Both the position numbers and the translations under genes were made by a program. The notes beneath the pieces were generated by a model. That model did no database searches. It was not told the origin of the DNA and saw only the letters and a list, made by a program, of their open reading frames with translations. A stretch of 64,000 nucleotides of DNA from a virus. Position 1 is the stretch's first letter, and each line of letters opens with the position of its first letter. Positions 21,600 through 63,456 of the stretch are shown piece after piece. The stretch lies in IMG/VR virus record IMGVR_UViG_3300028534_000002. The stretch is one strand, 5' to 3'.

Positions 21600-21660
21600 C
21601 CTGTTTGTCCTTGTGTTAAATTTGTACTATTGTATCATATGGAAGTTTAGGAGGAGATTT

Positions 21661-21681
21661 GAACCAGAAGAGTACTGGTTC
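21661..21681. repeat. GAACCAG-n7-CTGGTTC hairpin
   Basis: Perfect 7-8 bp inverted repeat preceded on the + strand by GATTT. Lies between the 225-aa gene and the 191-aa gene. Confidence 0.8.
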
Positions 21682-21709
21682 ATTGGAGTTGTTCTATGCT
21701 GTTTGTTTT

Positions 21710-21732
21710 AACTCCCCCTCTAAAGGGGAGTT
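21710..21732 (-). terminator. hairpin after the 225-aa gene (candidate terminator)
   Basis: AACTCCCC-n7-GGGGAGTT, 8-bp stem, about 45 nt past the stop. Confidence 0.5.
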
Positions 21733-21774
21733 AGATTTGTTATAAGTAGGTCGCTGATTTATTGGATGGATGGA

Positions 21775-22452
21775 CTAAACTTTAAAGAGTTTGTCGATAG
21801 CTTTTTCTTTCACAAGTAATGTGCCTTTTTTGCCATGAAATGATTTTCCTTCTACTGGAAGTCTTACTTGCCTTGTTACGACTTTTGTATCAATCAACCC
21901 CTTATCTGACATCATGTCGAGAAGTTCAGTTGCCGTAATGTTAAGTTCTGGATGCTCTTTAACGTATCTTGATGCGGTGATAAATTCTTCATCCCAGTCG
22001 TTAAATTTGTCTAGCTCTAGTTTATTAACTTTCTTCTCAAGCTTCTTGATAAGTCTTTGTTGCTCTTTGTGCTTCATTAGGGCTAGTTCGAATTTTGTTG
22101 CAAAGAAATCTGCTATAAGATTTGCTTTATGCTCTTTAACTTGTTTTGTGTTTCTCATTAATGCCAATAGTAACTCTACATGTGGCTGATACAATCTAAC
22201 ACGATTCCAATTGATTTCATTTCTATTTTCTTTTTCAACTAATTCCAATTTTGGTATCTGTATTTGGTCGGATTTTAAATCCACCCGATTTTTTATGTTC
22301 TCAATTATTCTATCTGGAAGCTCATCAAACAACTTCACATTTCTAGTAATTAATTTCTGAACTGCATCTAAGCTTACTTCGCAATATTCTGCTATATCAG
22401 TTACTACTGCGTAAGAATCTCCATTGGTGTCTTGTTTTATGATTTTGCTCAT
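21775..22452 (-). CDS. putative DNA-binding protein: N-terminal HTH plus C-terminal KilAC-like antirepressor-type domain (225 aa)
   Basis: N-terminus TDIAEYCEVSLDAVQKLI looks like a helix-turn-helix. C-terminus ITATELLDMMSDKGLIDTKVVTRQVRLPVEGKSF...GTLLVKEKAIDKL resembles the KilA-C pattern as I remember it. RBS AAAGGA. Confidence 0.45.
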   Translation of the reverse strand: MSKIIKQDTNGDSYAVVTDIAEYCEVSLDAVQKLITRNVKLFDELPDRIIENIKNRVDLKSDQIQIPKLELVEKENRNEINWNRVRLYQPHVELLLALMRNTKQVKEHKANLIADFFATKFELALMKHKEQQRLIKKLEKKVNKLELDKFNDWDEEFITASRYVKEHPELNITATELLDMMSDKGLIDTKVVTRQVRLPVEGKSFHGKKGTLLVKEKAIDKLFKV

Positions 22453-22497
22453 AAAATATCCTTTAAAATAATTTATGTGATTCCGTCAAAGTAGGGT

Positions 22498-22597
22498 ATC
22501 AGGACTTTCACCTGATTGCTTTTCGTCATACTGTGGGTAGAGTAGTTTTCATACTCTGTAATTCCGTGAAGTTTGGGTTGGATAGTCTTTCATATCC
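22498..22597. promoter_or_regulatory. array of three tandem hairpins with different stems but conserved loops and flanks
   Basis: On the + strand: GGGT-ATCAGG-actttca-CCTGAT (22498-22516), GGGT-AGAGTA-gttttca-TACTCT (22539-22557), GGGTT-GGATA-gtctttca-TATCC (22580-22597). ATTCCGT(c/g)AA is repeated between the units. Lies in the 5' leader of the 225-aa gene. Confidence 0.75.
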
Positions 22598-22607
22598 GTA
22601 GAAGTAT

Positions 22608-22616
22608 ATTATAGCA
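22608..22616 (-). promoter_or_regulatory. extended -10 sigma70-type promoter element (TGcTATAAT on the minus strand)
   Basis: Read directly; there is no good -35. It would start a transcript about 145 nt upstream of the 225-aa gene, spanning the three hairpins. Confidence 0.4.
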
Positions 22617-22628
22617 TATATTTGATTT

Positions 22629-22651
22629 GAACCAGTCAATGCAACTGGTTC
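22629..22651. repeat. GAACCAGT-n7-ACTGGTTC hairpin
   Basis: Perfect 8-bp arms (9 with the flanking T/A), preceded on the + strand by GATTT. Lies just past the micropeptide stop. Confidence 0.8.
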
Positions 22652-22663
22652 ATGAGAGTTTGG

Positions 22664-22711
22664 TTAGCGTTTACGTTTACCGCCACCTTTTTTCTTGGTT
22701 TTACAAGCCAT
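22664..22711 (-). CDS. 15-aa highly basic micropeptide MACKTKKKGGGKRKR (candidate small ORF)
   Basis: ATG preceded by AAAGGAG at 6-nt spacing; 15 codons then TAA. Bracketed by the two GAACCAGT hairpins at 22773-22799 and 22629-22651. Below the size cutoff of the ORF track. Confidence 0.4.
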   Translation of the reverse strand: MACKTKKKGGGKRKR

Positions 22712-22772
22712 GGTGATCTCCTTTCATAGTTTGTAAGTTAATTATATTGTATTTTACTTTATGGATTGATTT

Positions 22773-22799
22773 GAACCAGTGAGAGAGGTTGACTGGTTC
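22773..22799. repeat. GAACCAGT-n11-ACTGGTTC hairpin
   Basis: Perfect 8-9 bp arms, preceded on the + strand by GATTT. Lies 17 nt past the J-domain gene stop. Confidence 0.8.
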
Positions 22800-22816
22800 A
22801 TAATGGATTATTGTTA

Positions 22817-23902
22817 CTACAAGAAAGCTTTGTTTACTTTATCGAGAGCAGATTCTCTTTTTGTCTTCCTTCCATTCTTCTTTGTTGGCTCTTTTTTTAT
22901 GATACATTCTTTATCTAAATACTGCTTCAGCACTCTCATGTTTGCCTCGGCAATCAAAAAGTCTCTATCTGTTCCTCCTTTGTCTGGGTGATTCTCTGAT
23001 AATATCTTTTTTCTGAACGTTTTGTATTTCGATTCAGTGTTTAGCGTTTTTATAAAATCTTCATCAATGCTATATGTACTCTTTATTCTCTCTATTGGCT
23101 TGTCAGAGAATGCTATTGCAAGTATGTTTCCGTTATATTTAGCGTTCATTTCTGAGAATGTTAAGTATTCGGCTTCTAGTATAGCTTTGAGTTTTTTTTC
23201 TTCAGCAATCTTGTTTGCAATCTCTTCGCCTTTCTTGACGGCATTTGTATCTGCGAAGTCAATAAATTCACATAAAATTTCTTCACCATTTTCTTCTGTT
23301 TCTTTTACGCTGATATACTCCGCGTGAACCTTAAGCACATCCTCTCTCCATGAGCCGTTTCCGAATAAAACGTGTTTAAAATCATACACATGATTAACCT
23401 TTATTACATCAACCTTCATCGTTTTTGCATCTTCGTCATACCCGTCATAGTTTATAACCTGTTCACCGTGTTGCATCTGTGCAAGAAGGTATACTGCTTC
23501 AATATCCTCTCTTGCTATGCCTTTGCCTGTCAAATTGTATATTGTACCAATAGTAACACCTTTGCCCGTAGTGCTGTTGTAGTCAAAAAAGTATAACGTA
23601 CAATAGAACGGACCAATAATTTGAACAAGGTATGGTCTATCTTCTTTTGAATAGTCAGAAAGGTTTTCGTGTGCATCGACGTATTCTGCAAAGTCATTCA
23701 GTAGTCTTGTTTGTTTTCTGTTTAACTTTTTATTGTATTTTCTCAGCGTTTTCAGGATATGCTTTGAGTCGTTGTATAGTGACATATACTCTTCTTTTCC
23801 AAACTCTTCCTTTAGCATTCTCTTTGCCTCAATAAGGTTACCGTTAAAAGTAACCATAAGTTTCTTCGCTTTCATTAATTTAATTTTATAGTCTTTAGTC
23901 AT
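22817..23902 (-). CDS. phage J-domain (DnaJ-like co-chaperone) protein, 361 aa
   Basis: The C-terminal segment YKTFRKKILSENHPDKGGTDRDFLIAEANMRVLKQYL carries the canonical HPD tripeptide between two helices. The start overlaps the upstream endonuclease stop by 1 nt (TAATG). Confidence 0.7.
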   Translation of the reverse strand: MTKDYKIKLMKAKKLMVTFNGNLIEAKRMLKEEFGKEEYMSLYNDSKHILKTLRKYNKKLNRKQTRLLNDFAEYVDAHENLSDYSKEDRPYLVQIIGPFYCTLYFFDYNSTTGKGVTIGTIYNLTGKGIAREDIEAVYLLAQMQHGEQVINYDGYDEDAKTMKVDVIKVNHVYDFKHVLFGNGSWREDVLKVHAEYISVKETEENGEEILCEFIDFADTNAVKKGEEIANKIAEEKKLKAILEAEYLTFSEMNAKYNGNILAIAFSDKPIERIKSTYSIDEDFIKTLNTESKYKTFRKKILSENHPDKGGTDRDFLIAEANMRVLKQYLDKECIIKKEPTKKNGRKTKRESALDKVNKAFL

Positions 23903-25476
23903 TACGCCATCTCCTTATATTCAAATCTATATTCATTCCAATCTTTTCCATCTCTAAGTCTTCTTGTCAGTGTTGCATTGGCTATTCCATATTTATCGCA
24001 TATATCTTTTTGTTTATTGAGCGTGTCTATATGTTTTCCATTCTTATATATGAGTATGTCTTTACCTGCCATCCTTACCTGTTTGACTGGTTCAACATGT
24101 TCATCGAAGCTCCATAAGTAACCTCCTGCGTGCTTTCTCTTTCCGTTGCACACTGCACCAATATGTCCTATTCCTGTCTCTTTTGAAGCCTCTGTAATAC
24201 TATTGAACTTTGCAATTAGCTCTCCATCCAATGTGAACTGATAGACCTCTTTCTGTTTTGATGGCATAGTGTATTCTCTGCATGACCATCCAGTAGCTTT
24301 TTTGTGCGATGATTTAGGAGTGACTGGTTCAATATGTGCTTTTGTAATCTCTTTTGCCTCCTGTTTAGTTTTATACGCTTTGTCAAGCTTCTTGAGGTTT
24401 TCATACGCCTGTTTTGCAAGTTGAGCTTTTACAGCCTCTCTCTGTTTTGCTTTTTCTTCTTTAGCTCTCTTATCTTCAAAATAGTTTATAGCAACAAGCA
24501 CAGGTTTGCTATCGTCTAGTATTCTTGTTATTTCGCCAATGTCATCATTGTTTAGCTCGAACCATTCTCTGAAGATGTTTTTGTCAGAATATTTGTCATG
24601 CAAAAACTTTTCAACGGTTGTTACGAAGTCTATTTCTTCTGAGACATACAAGAGCTCTATACCGTTTGGGTTGGAGTTTTTTAGTGACGATATTCTTTTT
24701 TCAATATCATGAGTTATTCCTATCTTGTGTGCAATTGAGATTTCGTTATCTTTAATGTATGGAGTTGTAACAATATAAACTTTATCACTTGCAGTCATTG
24801 ACTTCAATGATAGCAACTCTTCTATGACTTTATCTCTCTGGTTCTCAGTAAGCTTATATACTGTTTTTGTTCTAGGCGACAACCCTTTGAAATCGTTTTC
24901 ATCAAACACATCTTTGTATTTTTCTATTGAGGACATAAGTGCTCTGTTTATTAGCTCAAAGTTTGCACTTAGCTCTGCCCCTAACTTTGCTGTATTTGAA
25001 CCAGTCCAAGATAAAGCCTTTAATCTAATAGCTTCTTTTGTTTTATCTGAGGCATCGAAGTATGAATTCTCTTTTGAGTGTGGAAGATCTTTATTTTTCT
25101 TTAGCAATTTTGTTCTTCCATTTACTGCGTACATTCTAATGTTTGAAAAACAATTGTACATATCAGTAACAAAATCATGAAGACTTTTCCACTCTGAATC
25201 GTTTTTTACAGAAGTGTTCCATATCTTTTTTAATAAACTATAGTATGGTTTTGAGCTTAGGCCATGAGTTCTTCTTGCATCACCATCATACTCTCTATTG
25301 ATTGAGCCTGCTGATAGAGCTTTTGATTTGCACTCTTTTGATCCACATGTTTTATTTACTTTGCCGTGACTCATTCTTTTTACTACATGATTATTGCATA
25401 TTGGGCACTCAAATAGTCCTTGTCTTACTCTTTGATTATTTAGTCTGGTTGGTTCAACTTCTTTAATAAGCTTCAT
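23902..25476 (-). CDS. free-standing homing endonuclease-like protein (Zn finger + T5orf172/GIY-YIG-superfamily nuclease + NUMOD-like HTH repeats), 524 aa
   Basis: CPICN...CGSKEC at the N-terminus. Central HKIGITHDIEKRISSLKNSNP...FLHDKY...FREWFEL matches the T5orf172 pattern. Two C-terminal repeats of the type ...ASKETGIGHIGAVCNGKRKHAGGYLWSF. Inserted just downstream of the capsid gene. Confidence 0.75.
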   Translation of the reverse strand: MKLIKEVEPTRLNNQRVRQGLFECPICNNHVVKRMSHGKVNKTCGSKECKSKALSAGSINREYDGDARRTHGLSSKPYYSLLKKIWNTSVKNDSEWKSLHDFVTDMYNCFSNIRMYAVNGRTKLLKKNKDLPHSKENSYFDASDKTKEAIRLKALSWTGSNTAKLGAELSANFELINRALMSSIEKYKDVFDENDFKGLSPRTKTVYKLTENQRDKVIEELLSLKSMTASDKVYIVTTPYIKDNEISIAHKIGITHDIEKRISSLKNSNPNGIELLYVSEEIDFVTTVEKFLHDKYSDKNIFREWFELNNDDIGEITRILDDSKPVLVAINYFEDKRAKEEKAKQREAVKAQLAKQAYENLKKLDKAYKTKQEAKEITKAHIEPVTPKSSHKKATGWSCREYTMPSKQKEVYQFTLDGELIAKFNSITEASKETGIGHIGAVCNGKRKHAGGYLWSFDEHVEPVKQVRMAGKDILIYKNGKHIDTLNKQKDICDKYGIANATLTRRLRDGKDWNEYRFEYKEMA

Positions 25477-25617: not shown

Positions 25618-25648
25618 GGGTCAGCTTAAGTTTTTTCTAAGCTAACCC
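25618..25648 (-). terminator. hairpin after the capsid gene (terminator or processing site)
   Basis: 11-bp stem GGGTCAGCTTA / TAAGCTAACCC with one mismatch. The mismatch is C-A on the + strand but G-U on the minus strand, consistent with minus-strand RNA. Confidence 0.55.
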
Positions 25649-51096: not shown

Positions 51097-51615
51097 CTAT
51101 AATATTTTTCCGTTTCTTTCTCTTATAAGTTTCCAAAACAATCTTCTTGGTGAGTAGTTACATGCTCCAGCCTTTCCAAATACAACCTCATGAACTACCT
51201 CTGAGCAAAACACTTTACTGTTACCGCAGAACCAGTCTATAAAGCTGAATGCAGAAAATATTGCACCAAAGTAATCATATCTTTTATCACTGTACATACT
51301 TACAACTTCAAGTATATTTGCGTCTATGTTTTCAATGCTATCTACATCTATCTCAACGATATCCCAATTGTCATTATTTAGTAATCTATCAATAGCAGCT
51401 TTTCTTATTGTTATCCCATTACTCCTAGGCGATACAGACAGCAACGACTTATTGTCGCTCATGTATATTTCAACATGACTATAATTGCTAAATGTTGCAA
51501 GTCCTATTGTCCAGTCAACAATTGTAGATCCATTGCAAAATGATCTATAAAATGCTATGTACGCTTTATCCATTATTGTCCCTCCAAATATGATTATATC
51601 AGTCAATTGGTTCAT
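51097..51615 (-). CDS. first late-operon gene; possible permuted papain-fold (NlpC/P60, YiiX-like) peptidase (172 aa)
   Basis: SNYSHVEIY and ...KVFCSEVVHEVVFG resemble the His and Cys segments of YiiX/C92-type enzymes. This is a weak, memory-based call. Confidence 0.35.
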   Translation of the reverse strand: MNQLTDIIIFGGTIMDKAYIAFYRSFCNGSTIVDWTIGLATFSNYSHVEIYMSDNKSLLSVSPRSNGITIRKAAIDRLLNNDNWDIVEIDVDSIENIDANILEVVSMYSDKRYDYFGAIFSAFSFIDWFCGNSKVFCSEVVHEVVFGKAGACNYSPRRLFWKLIRERNGKIL

Positions 51616-51745
51616 GTTAGTTTAGGTTGGTTTAGTATTGCACTAATTTTAACATGCTCTACTCGAACTCGAACACTCTAAAACACTTAAAGTATATCTC
51701 TTCTCGAAGTCAATACCTTCCACATTGAGTATATACTCGATGCTA

Positions 51746-51837
51746 AACGAAGCCGAAGCTTAGTGGCTAAGTATATGCTTATTTGAATGATGACTGGTTT
51801 GAATGATGACTGAATGGTGATACCAACGAAGCCGAAG
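51746..51837. repeat. direct repeat AACGAAGCCGAAG (51746-51758, 51825-51837)
   Basis: 13/13 identical; each copy is followed within 12 nt by AAGTATAT. Confidence 0.8.
51782..51812. repeat. tandem repeat TTTGAATGATGACTG x2 (plus a degenerate third unit)
   Basis: 51782-51796 and 51798-51812 are identical; 51813-51820 (aatggtga) is a partial third unit. Confidence 0.85.
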
Positions 51838-51860
51838 TATATACCTATAGTGACATCTAA

Positions 51861-51930
51861 TGCACCCCGGGGGGGCATAAATACAAATAGCTAAATAGAT
51901 TCCAAAAATCCTGCAAGCATACCCCCCCAT
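51861..51930. other. C4G7 palindromic core and a C7 run 47 nt downstream (G7/C7 long-range complement)
   Basis: TGCACCCCGGGGGGGCAT at 51861-51878 and CATACCCCCCCAT at 51918-51930. These are the only long G/C homopolymers I see in this AT-rich window. Confidence 0.7.
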
Positions 51931-52158
51931 ATATGCATACACTACGAAACATACAGTACTCAATGTGTCTATCATAGGTGCACAGTGCAACAAGCGCAGA
52001 AGATCTCAAGCAGTACGCAAGCAAATGCACTACTGGTTCCAAATACGATACGTACTCCTATGCGACAAGCAACAACAACCATGTGTCAAGCCATACTACA
52101 ACAAAGGATCATACTACAAATACCAGTAGTAGTGCAAACTACTACAAAAGGATTTATC

Positions 52159-53272: not shown

Positions 53273-53539
53273 TTAAGTCGTGAACAAAATTTGTCAAATC
53301 CAAAACTTACCTTCAATATATAATGTAAGTTCGACTTTTGATTTCGACCTAAATTTTCCTAAATCAATATTACCTTTTCAAATTTAACATTGAACTAACC
53401 TTCAATCTTTTTGATACTGGTAGTATTGGTATCAACCTGCTGTTGCTCATCTTTGAGCTAACCTTCGTCTACTCTCTGTCATTGTGGAGTAGATTTCGAG
53501 ATCCAGTGATCTTGATACAATTAATACAAAGGATTAACT

Positions 53540-54097
53540 ATGGCACAAATTACTTTCGGAAACACTACACAAACTACTTCAATTTCTACTACAGCAATTG
53601 ATTACTCTATTCTAACAGACGCTGAGTTGGTTCAAGAGTTGTTTAACCTTCTTACCAAAGAGCAACGTCAAGAGATTCAGAACATGAGCATTGGCTTAAA
53701 GCCTGCGTTAGACGCATTAGCAGAACTAAAATCTGCTCTCGTGTCAAAGTTTTCTAATGTCCGAGAGGACTTAATCGAGGAGAAACTAGCAAACGCTTTG
53801 GCATTGGCCAAACGTGAATATGGTTCATCTCTTCGATTCGTTGATGGCAACTTGGGTCTAATCAAGTTCCTAAAATCTGATGAGAAGCTTGATTCCGATA
53901 ATTTCAAGTTCTTGGCATCATTGTCACAAGAGCCAAAGCCACTTGAGGTAATGTTCCTAGAAAGCGGTTTGAGAAAACTGCTTGAGATTAGTGAGAATAT
54001 TCTCAGAGATGTGCCGTCTGAGTTCATTATTGAACTCAAGCGTCGCATCAACGGCATCAAGCCGTTAGAAGATGACGCTCTCGATGGCATCTTCTAG
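53540..54097 (+). CDS. early protein, family B (185 aa), paralog of 60479-61000
   Basis: RBS AAAGGATTAACT-ATG. Roughly 40% identity by eye to the 173-aa protein (SIGLKP, KLA.ALALAK, VDG.L..IK, LEVM.LE.GLRK, RING.KPL.D.ALD). Confidence 0.75.
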   Translation: MAQITFGNTTQTTSISTTAIDYSILTDAELVQELFNLLTKEQRQEIQNMSIGLKPALDALAELKSALVSKFSNVREDLIEEKLANALALAKREYGSSLRFVDGNLGLIKFLKSDEKLDSDNFKFLASLSQEPKPLEVMFLESGLRKLLEISENILRDVPSEFIIELKRRINGIKPLEDDALDGIF

Positions 54098-54104
54098 GCA
54101 TATT

Positions 54105-54136
54105 TGAACCAGTGAGTGTGTAAGCTCATTGGTTCA
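54105..54136 (+). other. TGAACCAGTGAG-n8-CTCATTGGTTCA hairpin after family-B gene
   Basis: 12-bp stem with a single G-T (G-U) pair on the + strand, 8 nt past the stop at 54097. Confidence 0.75.
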
Positions 54137-54250
54137 TAGTTTGGACTGATGGAGCATATTTCGGTATGTTCCACAGGTTTAAACTGCTATACAAAACATT
54201 CGAGTCTCTAGTTTCATGGCTAGAGATGCTTTAACCACAAAGGATTAATC

Positions 54251-56038
54251 ATGAAAACAACTGAAATAAAAACTAACAATACAAACGCTGTACTCAACTA
54301 TAACCAAATCGTTGAGTTGTTAAGTTCTTACAACTTCCCAATCTCTATGACCGATTACGTTAGTCAAATTGCTTCAATCATTAATATTACTGATGTAATG
54401 GTTGATTCTAACCGATTGGTTGAGGATCACCCTCTTATAGATGAACTAATAGGTAAAGTTGTTGACAAGCTACTTTACCAACCTCAATACAAAGAGATTA
54501 ATGATGGAAGTTTCATGTTCAAGAAGTCTCTCATCGCTGTTGCAGGAACTATCATTGAGAACTGCATCCCTTGGTCTACCAAGGTTGTCAAGTACTTTGA
54601 TGAGAATGGGAACTTGTGTACCCGTGAGACCAAGTATTTCTCAAATGCCTCAGATGAGGAGTATGTAGAACCAGAGTATGCTCGCCTTCCTGAGAAATAT
54701 GACGCAACGTACGTCATGAAAGGGAGCAAAAAGCAAATTGAATGTGTCATTCGAGAGAAGCATCTCAACATGCTATCTCGACAAGAGTTCATGGTTAGAG
54801 CAATTGACCATGACTTAGTGTATACCTATGCTAACATGAAATTCAGTGAGAACGTAGGGAATGTCAAATATTCTCCATCCAAGTATCTCAAAGAATTAGA
54901 GAGTTTCGCCAGTGTTACCATTGCCCACGCTGGGTTCCGCTATTCAAACATCCGTAAACTTGATGGGTCTGGAAGAGACTATCCTGCTGTTTCAATTGGA
55001 TTTGCAAAACAGTACGGAGATAGTTTCGAAAAGTTCCTCATCGAGTCTGACTACACTTATGTAGTAACTAAAGAAGACGTTAAACTTGCCAAAGAATTCA
55101 TCAAGGAAGAATTTAAGGTTAAGTCTTGGAGAAAGCTGTTCGAGCGTTCTTCCAAGGCTATAGAGAAAGCTAGACGGCTTAATGTTGTATTTCAAACTGG
55201 ACGAAAAGTTAAGTGGAATATGACATCAAAGGAGTTTGGTGAGGCTCTCTGGATATGTGATATTGTTAATAATATCATATACAATGAGGGAGGTGTATCA
55301 TCAAGCTACATCATGGCTGACCTAACAAACTCTGGGGCAATCATGACTGCCTACCAATTTGGAGACGAAAAGTATATGCGTGTTGCCAACTTATTAGGAG
55401 GCGATAAGATTGACACTCACCAGCTTGTTGCGGACTTCTTTGGTATCTCTCGCAAAGAAAGTAAAACCAAGTTTGTAGGTGCCACACATGGCGCTAGAGT
55501 AACAGATGAACTTGTTGAGTGTAAAGATGAGGTGTATGGTGAGCGGTTCGACTATATCAGACTTATCGCAGAGTACGGCATTAAGCTTGCTAAAGCAGGT
55601 GTTCCATACGTTGAGATGATTCAGCGTGATGGTATGAAAGTTATTTGGGAACCGTATATGCGAAACTGTAGAGTTAGCTTAGAGCTCTCAAATCTCTCTG
55701 TTCATGCGATTATGCCCTTTACTCAAGGACTCGAAGGTAGTCCAAAAGTAAGTGGTCTCTATGCAAGAATGGTACATAGCTGTGACAGTTATGTACTTAG
55801 AAAGATTCAGCGTCAGCTTCATGACAAAGGCATTCATGTTAAGACTACGCTTGATTGCTATTATGTGCGTCCATCGCTCAAACCAATCATTGTTAGTATG
55901 GTTTGGGATGCATTGAAAGATTTGGACAGTTGGTTCAAAGAGCAAATCAAGTATATCGAAGAGCAAACAGGAATCAAGGCTGATTTCGAGTTGCCAAATC
56001 GAGAACTTGATGTTGTGGAAACATCAAACATTATGTAG
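54251..56038 (+). CDS. compact T7-like single-subunit RNA polymerase (N4 RNAPII-equivalent, single chain), 595 aa
   Basis: DGSGR (T/DxxGR, aa 238-242). Motif A MADLTNSG (Asp357, nt 55319-55321). Motif B RKESKTKFVGATHG (R-x3-K-x7-HG, aa 401-414). Motif C-like VHSCDSY (Asp512, nt 55784-55786). DxxGR-to-A spacing of 119 aa matches T7 (about 116). Lies in the early block as in N4. Confidence 0.65.
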   Translation: MKTTEIKTNNTNAVLNYNQIVELLSSYNFPISMTDYVSQIASIINITDVMVDSNRLVEDHPLIDELIGKVVDKLLYQPQYKEINDGSFMFKKSLIAVAGTIIENCIPWSTKVVKYFDENGNLCTRETKYFSNASDEEYVEPEYARLPEKYDATYVMKGSKKQIECVIREKHLNMLSRQEFMVRAIDHDLVYTYANMKFSENVGNVKYSPSKYLKELESFASVTIAHAGFRYSNIRKLDGSGRDYPAVSIGFAKQYGDSFEKFLIESDYTYVVTKEDVKLAKEFIKEEFKVKSWRKLFERSSKAIEKARRLNVVFQTGRKVKWNMTSKEFGEALWICDIVNNIIYNEGGVSSSYIMADLTNSGAIMTAYQFGDEKYMRVANLLGGDKIDTHQLVADFFGISRKESKTKFVGATHGARVTDELVECKDEVYGERFDYIRLIAEYGIKLAKAGVPYVEMIQRDGMKVIWEPYMRNCRVSLELSNLSVHAIMPFTQGLEGSPKVSGLYARMVHSCDSYVLRKIQRQLHDKGIHVKTTLDCYYVRPSLKPIIVSMVWDALKDLDSWFKEQIKYIEEQTGIKADFELPNRELDVVETSNIM

Positions 56039-62425: not shown

Positions 62426-62449
62426 TAAAATAAGCACTTTTTAGTGCTT
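62426..62449. repeat. 24-nt hairpin repeat TAAAATAAGCACTTTTTAGTGCTT (copy 1; candidate terminator)
   Basis: AAGCACT-tttt-AGTGCTT; identical to 63295-63318. Confidence 0.8.
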
Positions 62450-63297: not shown

Positions 63298-63318
63298 AAT
63301 AAGCACTTTTTAGTGCTT
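63295..63318. repeat. 24-nt hairpin repeat (copy 2; candidate terminator)
   Basis: Identical 24-mer overlapping the stop of the ATPase gene 62647-63297. Confidence 0.8.
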
Positions 63319-63456
63319 ATGTATACAATGACATACCTAACAGGTAGAAAGTGGCTAGAATCGCATGCTAGACGCATTAAATGAGGTGCTACTTGGTTCT
63401 AGTTAGTAGAGAACCAGTGAGAGTAGTTAACTTAATCAAATACAAGGAGAAAACAA

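Follow-up and report, generated by a model that had tools for sequence, protein, structure and literature searches.

Three tandem phased hairpins form a candidate leader RNA element upstream of an accessory gene in a distant N4-like phage

In translationally coupled open reading frames (ORFs), start sites are masked by RNA structure and are opened by ribosomes arriving from upstream, as in the RNA phage MS2, in gene V-VII of the filamentous phages and in operons whose genes overlap through ATGA or TGATG. RNAs of the CsrB/RsmZ type (Csr/Rsm) carry many identical loops on differing stems, the loop motif being GGA. Here we describe an element that belongs to no described family and whose nearest counterparts are translationally coupled leaders or multi-hairpin protein-binding RNAs. 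It is an array of three tandem hairpins in a 64,000-nucleotide stretch of the IMG/VR virus record IMGVR_UViG_3300028534_000002 (this whole stretch is called the window below), where it lies on the minus strand in the predicted 5' leader of a gene for a protein of 225 amino acids (aa). On balance, the array is probably a cis-acting, sense-strand 5'-leader RNA element that arose from a triplicated ancestral unit and whose hairpins are under selection. As judged from the sequence, its most likely function is post-transcriptional control of the 225-aa gene.

The three hairpins, U1, U2 and U3, follow one another at a period of exactly 41 nt, the TGAAA that opens every loop starting at positions 22592, 22551 and 22510 (Table 1). 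All three stems are perfect, and ACCC is found 3' of each hairpin. Read along the minus strand, the array runs tgcTATAATatacttctac-GGATA-tgaaagac-TATCC-aACCC-aaacttcACGGAATtac-AGAGTA-tgaaaac-TACTCT-ACCC and continues, after the ACCC of U2, with acagtatGACGAAAAgca-ATCAGG-tgaaagt-CCTGAT-ACCC-tactttGACGGAATcacataaattattttaaaggatattttATG. A spacer motif recurs as cACGGAAT 3' of U1, GACGAAAA 3' of U2 and tGACGGAAT 3' of U3. A first-pass annotation made from the letters of this DNA had described three minus-strand hairpins here with unlike stems, similar loops and ACCC tails, and had placed an extended -10 element at 22608-22616; on re-reading, the positions of both were correct. Its statement that the array sits in a 5' leader likewise agrees with the predicted leader, which lies behind the extended -10 promoter and before the start codon.

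Hairpins of this kind are rare in the window. Over both of its strands (128 kb), four hairpins combine a stem of at least 5 bp with a loop that begins with TGAAA, and three of the four are the array units; the ACCC flank accompanies such hairpins only in these three units. Relaxed hairpin scans of the 64-kb window returned no further units. When the window was shuffled 150 times with its dinucleotides preserved, not one shuffle contained as many as two hairpins that lie no more than 150 nt apart and have a common loop 5-mer and a common 3' flank 4-mer; an earlier, looser cluster statistic was uninformative, with 0.3 triples per shuffle arising from low-complexity loops. Folded singly, U1, U2 and U3 reach -4.4, -4.7 and -7.1 kcal/mol, with z scores (-2.7, -2.9 and -2.4, respectively) that are modest and significant. 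When the three units are set in register, both partners vary in 5 of 5 inner stem pairs and pairing is complete (15 of 15 cells), a combination reached by 1 of 500 shuffles; slid controls were 33-46% paired. Over a stretch of 22 nt, U1 and U3 share 77% identity in their flanks, and the mean column identity of the units is about 70%. This flank identity marks the units as duplicates, indicating that the stems diverged far faster than the loops, tails and spacers, yet stayed complementary.

The only other contig with the array is L007, whose leader is near-identical to that of the window (95%). The two leaders differ at 1 of 69 positions in the hairpins and ACCC tails versus 8 of 83 positions in the spacers (Fisher p = 0.04). 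The hairpins are real and non-random and appear, from comparison of sequences, to be maintained by selection, and the earlier suggestion that they are selected structures is supported both by the covarying inner pairs and by the way in which substitutions avoid the hairpins and their tails.

Homologues of the 225-aa protein are few. Only about ten (P0001-P0011 listed) were found among 5.8 billion proteins, and nine loci (L001-L008 and L157) were compared with the window. A nucleotide search with the locus against 50,697 phage records gave no match, nor did a tblastn search of the same records with the 225-aa protein. Scans of IMG/VR with the 225-aa protein and its neighbours returned nothing, an alignment-based scan returned the L004 contig only, two scans of metagenome contigs found nothing, and an exact-protein look-up of the window's 225-aa gene product gave no record.

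The extended -10 element stands at the same place in every homologous locus. In the relatives other than L007, a hairpin and this element are followed by a different, strongly structured leader of 150-250 nt, which, like the array, precedes the homologous gene. These leaders have stems of 19-27 bp and interleaved or competing long-range pairings (a-b-a'-b'; z scores of -4 to -7.8), whereas the array of the window consists of three short phased hairpins. The 3' third of the window leader, from the GTGAAAG of U3 via TAC-TTTGAC to the Shine-Dalgarno sequence, aligns with the leader type of L001, L002 and L006, and the leaders of these three loci contain one AAGTGAAGAC element (GTGAAGAC; RUGAAR) at the position homologous to U3 and its 3' flank. 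Since U3 aligns with a single such element, U3 looks ancestral and U1 and U2 look like later duplicates. U3 is therefore best described as the probable ancestral unit, with the array probably having arisen by triplication of one leader unit. The long helix of L001, L002 and L006 shows three compensatory pairs, many one-sided changes that are compatible with G.U pairing, and G.U pairs on the sense strand, which argues that those leaders act as sense RNAs. Taken together by their predicted structures, the leaders of this gene family look like an uncharacterised, fast-evolving class of leader RNAs; the array is a lineage-restricted variant of a structured regulatory leader, and its architecture is unusual. 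That an accessory-gene family has a different elaborate leader in each lineage examined points to strong, rapidly changing post-transcriptional control.

The earlier reading missed that start and stop codons overlap in the loops and that coupled mini-ORFs tile the leader with the 41-nt period. Each loop, together with the last stem base before it, reads [A/G]TG-AAA (ATGAAAG, ATGAAAA and GTGAAAG), and a start codon with the favourable AAA as its second codon thereby overlaps a TGA stop codon. Because a period of 41 nt is 2 mod 3, the TGA of each following loop is in phase with the ORF that starts in the loop before it. The window leader is tiled in this way by three mini-ORFs with two ATGA joins, and the last of them ends 20 nt before the main ATG, inside a weak hairpin in which the main start codon and some of its Shine-Dalgarno sequence are paired. 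The chain is also unbroken in L007, where it consists of ORFs of 12 aa, 14 aa (ending at the TGA of the U3 loop) and 12 aa (from the GTG), and where two substitutions shift a stop and a start. The leader of L001 and L002, which is unalignable to the window array, has its own chain of three ORFs joined via TGATG and GTGA. Strictly overlapping chains of three ORFs occur in 0.7% of shuffles of the window leader, in 0.2-1.2% of shuffles across the eight leaders tested, and in 16 of 5,108 genomic segments of 152 nt (0.3%).

One way in which the triplicated sense-RNA leader may gate translation of the accessory gene is through a relay of ribosomes, the mechanism that we favour, though tentatively, as possible rather than probable. 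The hairpins would close the internal start codons to free ribosomes, and a ribosome finishing the preceding mini-ORF would open the next hairpin and re-initiate. Such a termination-reinitiation relay would hand ribosomes along the leader and would set or gate the output of the downstream protein from a strong promoter. The translating ribosomes might also shield the C-rich, G-poor leader (its C/G ratio of 1.39 is at the 92nd percentile for the minus strand) from Rho or RNases. The ACCC tails are unexplained by a relay and may be a second, RNA-level signal. As in translationally coupled leaders, stops and starts overlap (ATGA, GTGA), starts lie in local hairpins, and the last stop of the window leader lies in the start-site hairpin; to our knowledge, three repeated, phased units with start codons in their loops are not a described arrangement of such leaders. 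If the relay is real, it would be a compact, natural, phased ribosome relay in which start codons are parked in loops and which tunes an accessory gene behind a strong late promoter, and it would offer a design principle for phage gene regulation and for synthetic biology.

Several observations weigh against this picture of a selected leader RNA that relays ribosomes. The array is confined to one small uncultivated lineage, and the depth of comparison is one near-identical orthologue; the stem covariation is found between paralogous units of one genome, not between orthologues. The sole orthologous array, that of L007, is 95% identical and has zero compensatory changes, and its single stem substitution breaks the outermost pair of U2 (A-T to T.T). 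The more distant relatives of the 225-aa gene are without the array. The first-pass annotation had tied its case to relatives that keep the array and compensate for changes in its stems; that expectation did not hold for the distant relatives, and in L007, which keeps the array, it failed as regards compensation. Taken whole, the leader is of ordinary stability (z = -0.21), and the signal is thus architectural rather than thermodynamic. A Tandem Repeats Finder run did not pick up the array. Of the two possible -10 elements, one would put the predicted transcription start within U1. The mini-ORFs, unlike the genes of translationally coupled systems, are not preceded by convincing Shine-Dalgarno sequences, nor do they encode conserved peptides; a comparison of the window with L007 shows two synonymous and two non-synonymous changes, one premature stop and one stop loss. 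Masking of the main start codon, a further feature of coupled leaders, is lost in L007, where the start-site hairpin is not conserved (z = +0.45). The chain is absent from L003, L004, L005, L006 and L008, and L006 shares the RNA structure of L001. The chain statistic is not independent of the array, since a repeated RTGA motif at a period of 2 mod 3 yields a chain automatically, and a period of 2 mod 3 has a prior of one in three. Finally, the ACCC tail, which has no role in coupled leaders, stands in a frame in U1 that differs from its frame in U2 and U3. Coding cannot, therefore, explain ACCC, which would be a signal at the level of RNA or DNA.

An array with no present function is one explanation of such a pattern. 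It would be a decaying tandem triplication of a hairpin-containing piece of leader whose stems have been kept or made perfect by template switching in quasi-palindromes, in which one arm is copied from the other, and not by selection, and it would suit units that are clearly duplicates, that are limited to one small lineage and that sit in a leader of ordinary stability (z = -0.21), with a sole orthologue that has one stem-breaking change and no compensation and with sister lineages that use wholly different leaders. We nevertheless consider it unlikely, given that stems which are fully diverged while loops, tails and spacers remain 70-77% alike are the opposite of neutral decay, that the 41-nt phasing is retained exactly, that substitutions avoid the hairpins (p = 0.04), and that the module around the array is far more conserved than the flanking genes.

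Table 1. Positions of the array, of predicted signals and reading frames around it, of neighbouring genes, and of the structured leaders in related contigs. Positions refer to the window unless a contig is named.
Feature	Position	Strand	Description
U1 hairpin	22597..22580	minus	GGATA / TGAAAGAC (tgaaagac) / TATCC; stem 5 bp, loop 8 nt; identical in L007
U1 loop contents			ATG-AAA, start of mini-ORF 1
U1 3' flank	22575..22579	minus	AACCC (aACCC)
U2 hairpin	22557..22539	minus	AGAGTA / TGAAAAC / TACTCT; stem 6 bp, loop 7 nt
U2 loop contents			ATGA, stop of mini-ORF 1 and start of mini-ORF 2
U2 3' flank	22535..22538	minus	ACCC
U3 hairpin	22516..22498	minus	ATCAGG / TGAAAGT / CCTGAT; stem 6 bp, loop 7 nt; loop holds GTGA
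U3 3' flank	22494..22497	minus	ACCC
Predicted sigma-70-type leader promoter	22603..22631	minus	Sequence motif; unchanged in L007
-35-like element	22631..22626	minus	TTCAAA; within 3' arm of hairpin H2
Extended -10 element	22616..22608	minus	TGCTATAAT; just upstream of array
Alternative -10 element	22608..22603	minus	TATACT, overlapping extended -10; sequence motif
Mini-ORF 1	22549..22593	minus	MKDYPTQTSRNYRV*; stop overlaps next start (ATGA)
Mini-ORF 2	22526..22552	minus	MKTTLPTV*; stop overlaps next start (ATGA)
Mini-ORF 3	22473..22529	minus	MTKSNQVKVLIPYFDGIT*; in frame with GTG of U3; TAA stop in 5' arm of start-site hairpin
Weak hairpin at main start site	22450..22477	minus	CAUAAA pairs with UUUAUG and part of Shine-Dalgarno; -5.0 kcal/mol, z -2.5
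Hairpin H1	22772..22800	minus	TGAACCAGT-N11-ACTGGTTCA; left boundary of conserved module
Hairpin H2	22628..22652	minus	TGAACCAGT-N7-ACTGGTTCA; directly upstream of and overlapping -35; in 350-bp module
15-aa basic mini-ORF	22664..22711	minus	MACKTKKKGGGKRKR; own promoter; 0/48 positions changed in L007
Downstream gene, 225 aa	21775..22452	minus	Accessory gene within late operon
361-aa protein gene	22817-23902	minus	C-terminal HPD motif (as in J-domains), read from translation
T5orf172/NUMOD gene resembling homing endonuclease	23902-25476	minus	Protein-family match
Structured leader, L001	44-150		
Structured leader, L002	1-126		
Structured leader, L006	38-136		
Structured leader, L003	2750-3000		
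Structured leader, L004	2842-3000		
Structured leader, L005	2306-2467		
Structured leader, L008	2832-3000		
Structured leader, L157	2660-2823		

The array belongs to a non-coding module of 350 bp (22801-22452) that is 94.9% identical to L007 (blastn) and that contains hairpin H1, a mini-ORF, hairpin H2, the promoter and the array. The structural genes of L007 and the window are about 69% identical, and the downstream genes are 82% identical in their C-terminal halves and not alignable in their N-terminal halves. Given an identity of 94.9% versus about 69% in the flanks, the module behaves as a cassette with sharp boundaries, and its conservation in front of genes with unlike N-terminal domains suggests that its function is independent of the downstream start site.

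This cassette-like conservation and the ACCC tails would be better accounted for by the main rival, a protein-binding array, than by a relay of ribosomes. A phage or host RNA-binding protein would read the UGAAAR loop and the single-stranded ACCC tail, and the three sites would bind it cooperatively and either repress or activate the 225-aa gene or titrate the protein away. Loops and 3' tails that are conserved on completely different stems, and that are nearly free of substitutions between the window and L007, would be expected of such an operator or sponge, and the N4-like phage LUZ7 is reported to make abundant late small RNAs (PMC9163698). No candidate binding protein was found, however: the 225-aa protein looks DNA-binding, and the peptide encoded by the 15-aa mini-ORF of the module is lysine-rich and is not an arginine-rich motif. 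The motif has no other copy in the 64-kb window, in IMG/VR or among the GTDB matches listed. A search of IMG/VR for the architecture of the array gave 26 matches, all of them due to chance (an unrelated GGGGTGAA/TTCACCCC element), and the same architecture gave at least 120 matches in GTDB genomes, with only chance or unrelated repeats among the matches listed. Relatives of P0008, the alternative N-terminal domain found 3' of the array in L007, yielded no further array. The array is also not followed by a terminator and does not, on that account, stand out as an RNA gene of its own. For these reasons we regard a protein-binding operator or sponge as possible and rather unlikely.

The array shares with CsrB/RsmZ RNAs a single short loop motif borne on several hairpins with unlike stems and short single-stranded spacers. 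It differs from them in its loop, which is UGAAAR and not GGA, in having three units only, and in lying within an mRNA leader and not in a terminated small RNA. A stronger form of the same idea, which we think improbable, is that the module is an autonomous, late-expressed RNA module that moves between N4-like phages as a 350-bp cassette with its promoters and the gene for the 15-aa peptide, and whose UGAAAR hairpins and ACCC tails bind, titrate or recruit a specific host or phage RNA-binding protein; the module would then be a new kind of phage-encoded sponge or operator RNA. If a protein does bind the array, the RNA biology of N4-like phages, which has been little studied, would gain a new protein-binding motif.

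The searches of bacterial genomes also brought up near-identical 41-nt tandem repeats in contigs from metagenome-assembled genomes (MAGs): L057 at 1320-1660, L114 at about 730-1040 on the reverse strand, and L143 at 920-1139. Their 41-nt period was set by the search pattern. In each repeat, a GTCACTG-TGAAAYGA-CAGTGAC hairpin precedes CC(C)AA. An Aliicoccus MAG is the source of L057 and L114, and the genes on either side of the L057 array encode an arginase and an Rgg/XRE-type regulator. This repeat family is uncharacterised and has no relation to the phage array.

The phage of the window encodes a homologue, 3,071 aa long, of the virion RNA polymerase (vRNAP), and the first-pass annotation had raised the possibility that the hairpins are vRNAP promoters of the N4 type. 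The vRNAP promoters of N4 and LUZ7 have a stem of 5-7 bp, a conserved 3-nt loop with a central purine, and a start at G (template C) that lies 11-15 nt from the hairpin centre; the LUZ7 middle promoters have a loop of 3-4 nt (PMC4496689, PMC9163698). On this explanation, the array would be three tandem single-stranded DNA hairpin promoters for a phage RNA polymerase (a divergent vRNAP or RNAPII), with the plus-strand hairpins as template and initiation near ACCC or the GACGGAAT motif. The stems of the array are as short as those of N4 promoters, whose non-conserved stem bases matter only for hairpin maintenance (PMC4496689, PMC9163698), and in both kinds of element the loop and bases downstream of it are conserved. 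A tandem pair of strong early hairpin promoters, spaced 33 nt apart, exists in LUZ7, whose genome is N4-like as is that of the window, and the orientation of the array is compatible, a conserved motif lying downstream of each hairpin in the direction of the gene. The array has loops of 7-8 nt on its stems of 5-6 bp, though, in place of the conserved 3 nt, and lacks a G where the start would be expected: counting 10-11 nt from the loop centre leads to the A or C of ACCC, and the conserved G/A of (G)ACGGAAT is about 20 nt away. Its place is in the late structural operon, where a host-type promoter precedes it and where it comes after the major capsid gene and before late virion genes, and neither its hairpin nor its spacer motif recurs in the 64 kb, including the putative early region at 51.6-54.3 kb. 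The promoter idea founders on loop size, on location and on this lack of reuse, and we consider it highly improbable.

The same annotation had likened to the array a hairpin, TCTCTAG-tttcatgg-CTAGAGA, which it placed at about 54197-54218, upstream of a supposed small RNA polymerase gene. The hairpin is actually at 54205-54226, 8 nt to the right. Its sense-strand loop reads UUUCAUGG, and its orientation relative to its gene is the opposite of that of the array; it does not carry the array motif in the same sense. The gene in question (595 aa; 54251-56038, plus strand) is without a sequence match in Pfam, PHROG or the PDB and has no detectable similarity to RNA polymerases.

The boxB element of lambda-type nut sites is a 5-bp stem that closes a GNRA-like pentaloop (GAAAA or GAAGA); such sites also have boxA a few nucleotides upstream and work with an N-type protein that bears an arginine-rich motif. 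The put RNA of phage HK022 consists of two larger stem-loops. A put- or nut-like antitermination signal, that is, a cis-acting RNA that modifies the host RNA polymerase for read-through into some 22 kb of late genes, has in its favour that the array is a set of small, promoter-proximal hairpins with GAAAR in their loops, recalling the boxB pentaloops, upstream of a long operon read by the host polymerase. Strong hairpins (21707-21735 and H3 at 21660-21682) follow 3' of the array and are themselves followed by the remaining late genes, and terminator read-through that depends on the stage of infection has been reported for LUZ7. The array nonetheless fails as boxB and was rejected as such: its loops, UGAAAGAC, UGAAAAC and UGAAAGU, have 7-8 nt, and the bases flanking GAAAR (U..U, U..C and U..AC) cannot pair, leaving no closing pair for a GNRA-like pentaloop. 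It has three copies versus one, and these are minimal hairpins as opposed to the two larger stem-loops of put. Reading the spacers by eye against the boxA consensus, with no formal search, gave no boxA-like motif, and no N-like protein was found. The downstream hairpins are without U-tracts on the sense strand, which makes it doubtful that anything there needs antitermination. Overall, this explanation seems to us very unlikely.

Type III antitoxin arrays (ToxI, CptI, TenpI, antiQ) are made of near-identical tandem repeats of about 34-47 nt and precede, usually with a terminator in between, the gene for an endoribonuclease of the ToxN, AbiQ, CptN or TenpN type. The layout of the window, with a promoter, tandem units of about 41 nt and then a protein gene, is that of a type III toxin-antitoxin locus, and the repeat length is in the range of ToxI, CptI and TenpI; the units might then be processed from the transcript to neutralise the 225-aa product or, as decoy RNA, a host defence nuclease. 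We hold this to be extremely unlikely. The array units are only about 70% alike and have different stems, in contrast to near-identical antitoxin repeats, there is no terminator between the array and the gene, and the 225-aa protein is without a ToxN, AbiQ, CptN or TenpN signature in Pfam, PADLOC and NCBIfam and does not resemble a ToxN-like endoribonuclease, modelling as a winged helix with a coiled coil.

Other comparisons were also tried and rejected. ANTAR leaders have a pair of hairpins whose hexaloops carry A at position 1 and G at position 4, and of these hairpins the second overlaps a terminator; the array has three hairpins with loops of 7-8 nt and no terminator. A T7-like linear promoter on the plus strand (18 conserved nt followed by GGGT) was dismissed, its motif being confined to the array. 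Mimicry of a tRNA or an anticodon loop finds no support, as ARAGORN finds nothing and the loops have no U33 in register. A pseudoknot between the loop and the 3' spacer of each unit is possible in U1 and U3, not in U2, and is broken in L007. Pairing of the 3' arm of U1 (UAUCC) with the GGAUA of the main Shine-Dalgarno sequence does not hold in L007. A supposed fourth unit beyond the capsid gene, at 25623-25643 with gACCCAAAATTTCA after it, proved to be an ordinary 11-bp 3' hairpin, in which ACCC pairs with an upstream GGGU. A search of Rfam 15 gave no match at gathering thresholds in the window and none that was relevant at E values of 1 or less in L001-L008.

The hairpin after the capsid gene (25618-25648, minus strand) has an 11-bp stem, GGGUUAGCUUA-gaaaaaacu-UAAGCUGACCC, and stands 14 nt after the stop codon of that gene. 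Its 3' flank, ACCCAAAAUUUCA, resembles that of U1, ACCCAAACUUCA, and it is possibly the source of the unit or else a coincidence.

The window is that of a distant N4-like podophage, its major capsid protein being about 35% identical to the capsid proteins of N4-like phages. All of the minus strand between about 51.6 kb and 0.3 kb belongs to the late module, with the genes for terminase, tail, portal, capsid, virion proteins and vRNAP. Accessory genes are inserted between the capsid gene and the next conserved virion gene, in the order T5orf172/NUMOD gene, 361-aa gene, 15-aa basic mini-ORF, array and 225-aa gene. The 361-aa protein belongs to no family in Pfam, PHROGs, PADLOC or NCBIfam. The 95%-identical cassette common to the window and L007, which lies near the gene resembling a homing endonuclease, could reflect gene conversion driven by that endonuclease.

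The 225-aa protein matches the Pfam family PF09669 (Rha) weakly, with an E value of 1.5e-4 that is under the curated cut-off, and it matches no defence or toxin family in Pfam, PADLOC or NCBIfam. Its AlphaFold2 model (pLDDT 81) has a winged-helix-like N-terminal domain, a helix of 45 residues and a small C-terminal alpha/beta domain, and comparison of the model with the PDB gave weak winged-helix matches only. Going by this model, the product is apparently a DNA-binding protein. The array thus lies behind a host-type promoter and precedes, within the late operon, an accessory gene of DNA-binding type.

The Shine-Dalgarno sequence of the basic mini-ORF of the module, AAAGGAG, is strong and is exposed in the 12-nt loop of a hairpin with a 12-bp stem (22701-22736; -7.8 kcal/mol, z -2.3), and the encoded 15-aa peptide, MACKTKKKGGGKRKR, is rich in lysine. 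The 5' arm and loop start of this hairpin, TTACAAACTATGAAAG, resemble U2 of the array, TTACAGAGTATGAAAA.

Hairpins H1 and H2 belong to a second hairpin family, (T)GAACCAG(T)-N7-11-(A)CTGGTTC(A), which is followed by AAATC. In the window, copies are found in minus sense at 22772-22800, 22628-22652 and 21660-21682, together with an imperfect copy at 54105-54140, and the relatives have copies in L004 (2797-2818), L006 (1-12) and L007 (94-122 and 240-262). The 3' arm provides a -35-like TTCAAA at 17-18 nt from a -10 element. Phages with a protein identity of only about 50% still share the stem, and the loop is hypervariable; that of H2 is fully replaced between the window and L007. No U-tract follows these hairpins, and they are thus not canonical terminators. 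They may be promoter-associated regulatory hairpins or 3'-end hairpins.

Elsewhere in the window, gene orientations diverge at 51600-51990, a region that contains ACGAAGCCGAAG twice (51748 and 51827), a 16-nt tandem repeat, TTTGAATGATGACTGG, in two copies, and homopolymer runs of G and C. This region may be the physical genome end and the early-promoter region of the phage. Within the plus-strand gene block, two intergenic regions share the hairpin AAGCACT-tttt-AGTGCTT (62432-62449 and 63299-63320, plus strand), which may be a recurrent terminator or promoter hairpin. Finally, a (C)TAACCTTCAAT-like motif occurs three times at 53309-53470 (plus strand), in the 634-nt intergenic region before the gene at 53540.

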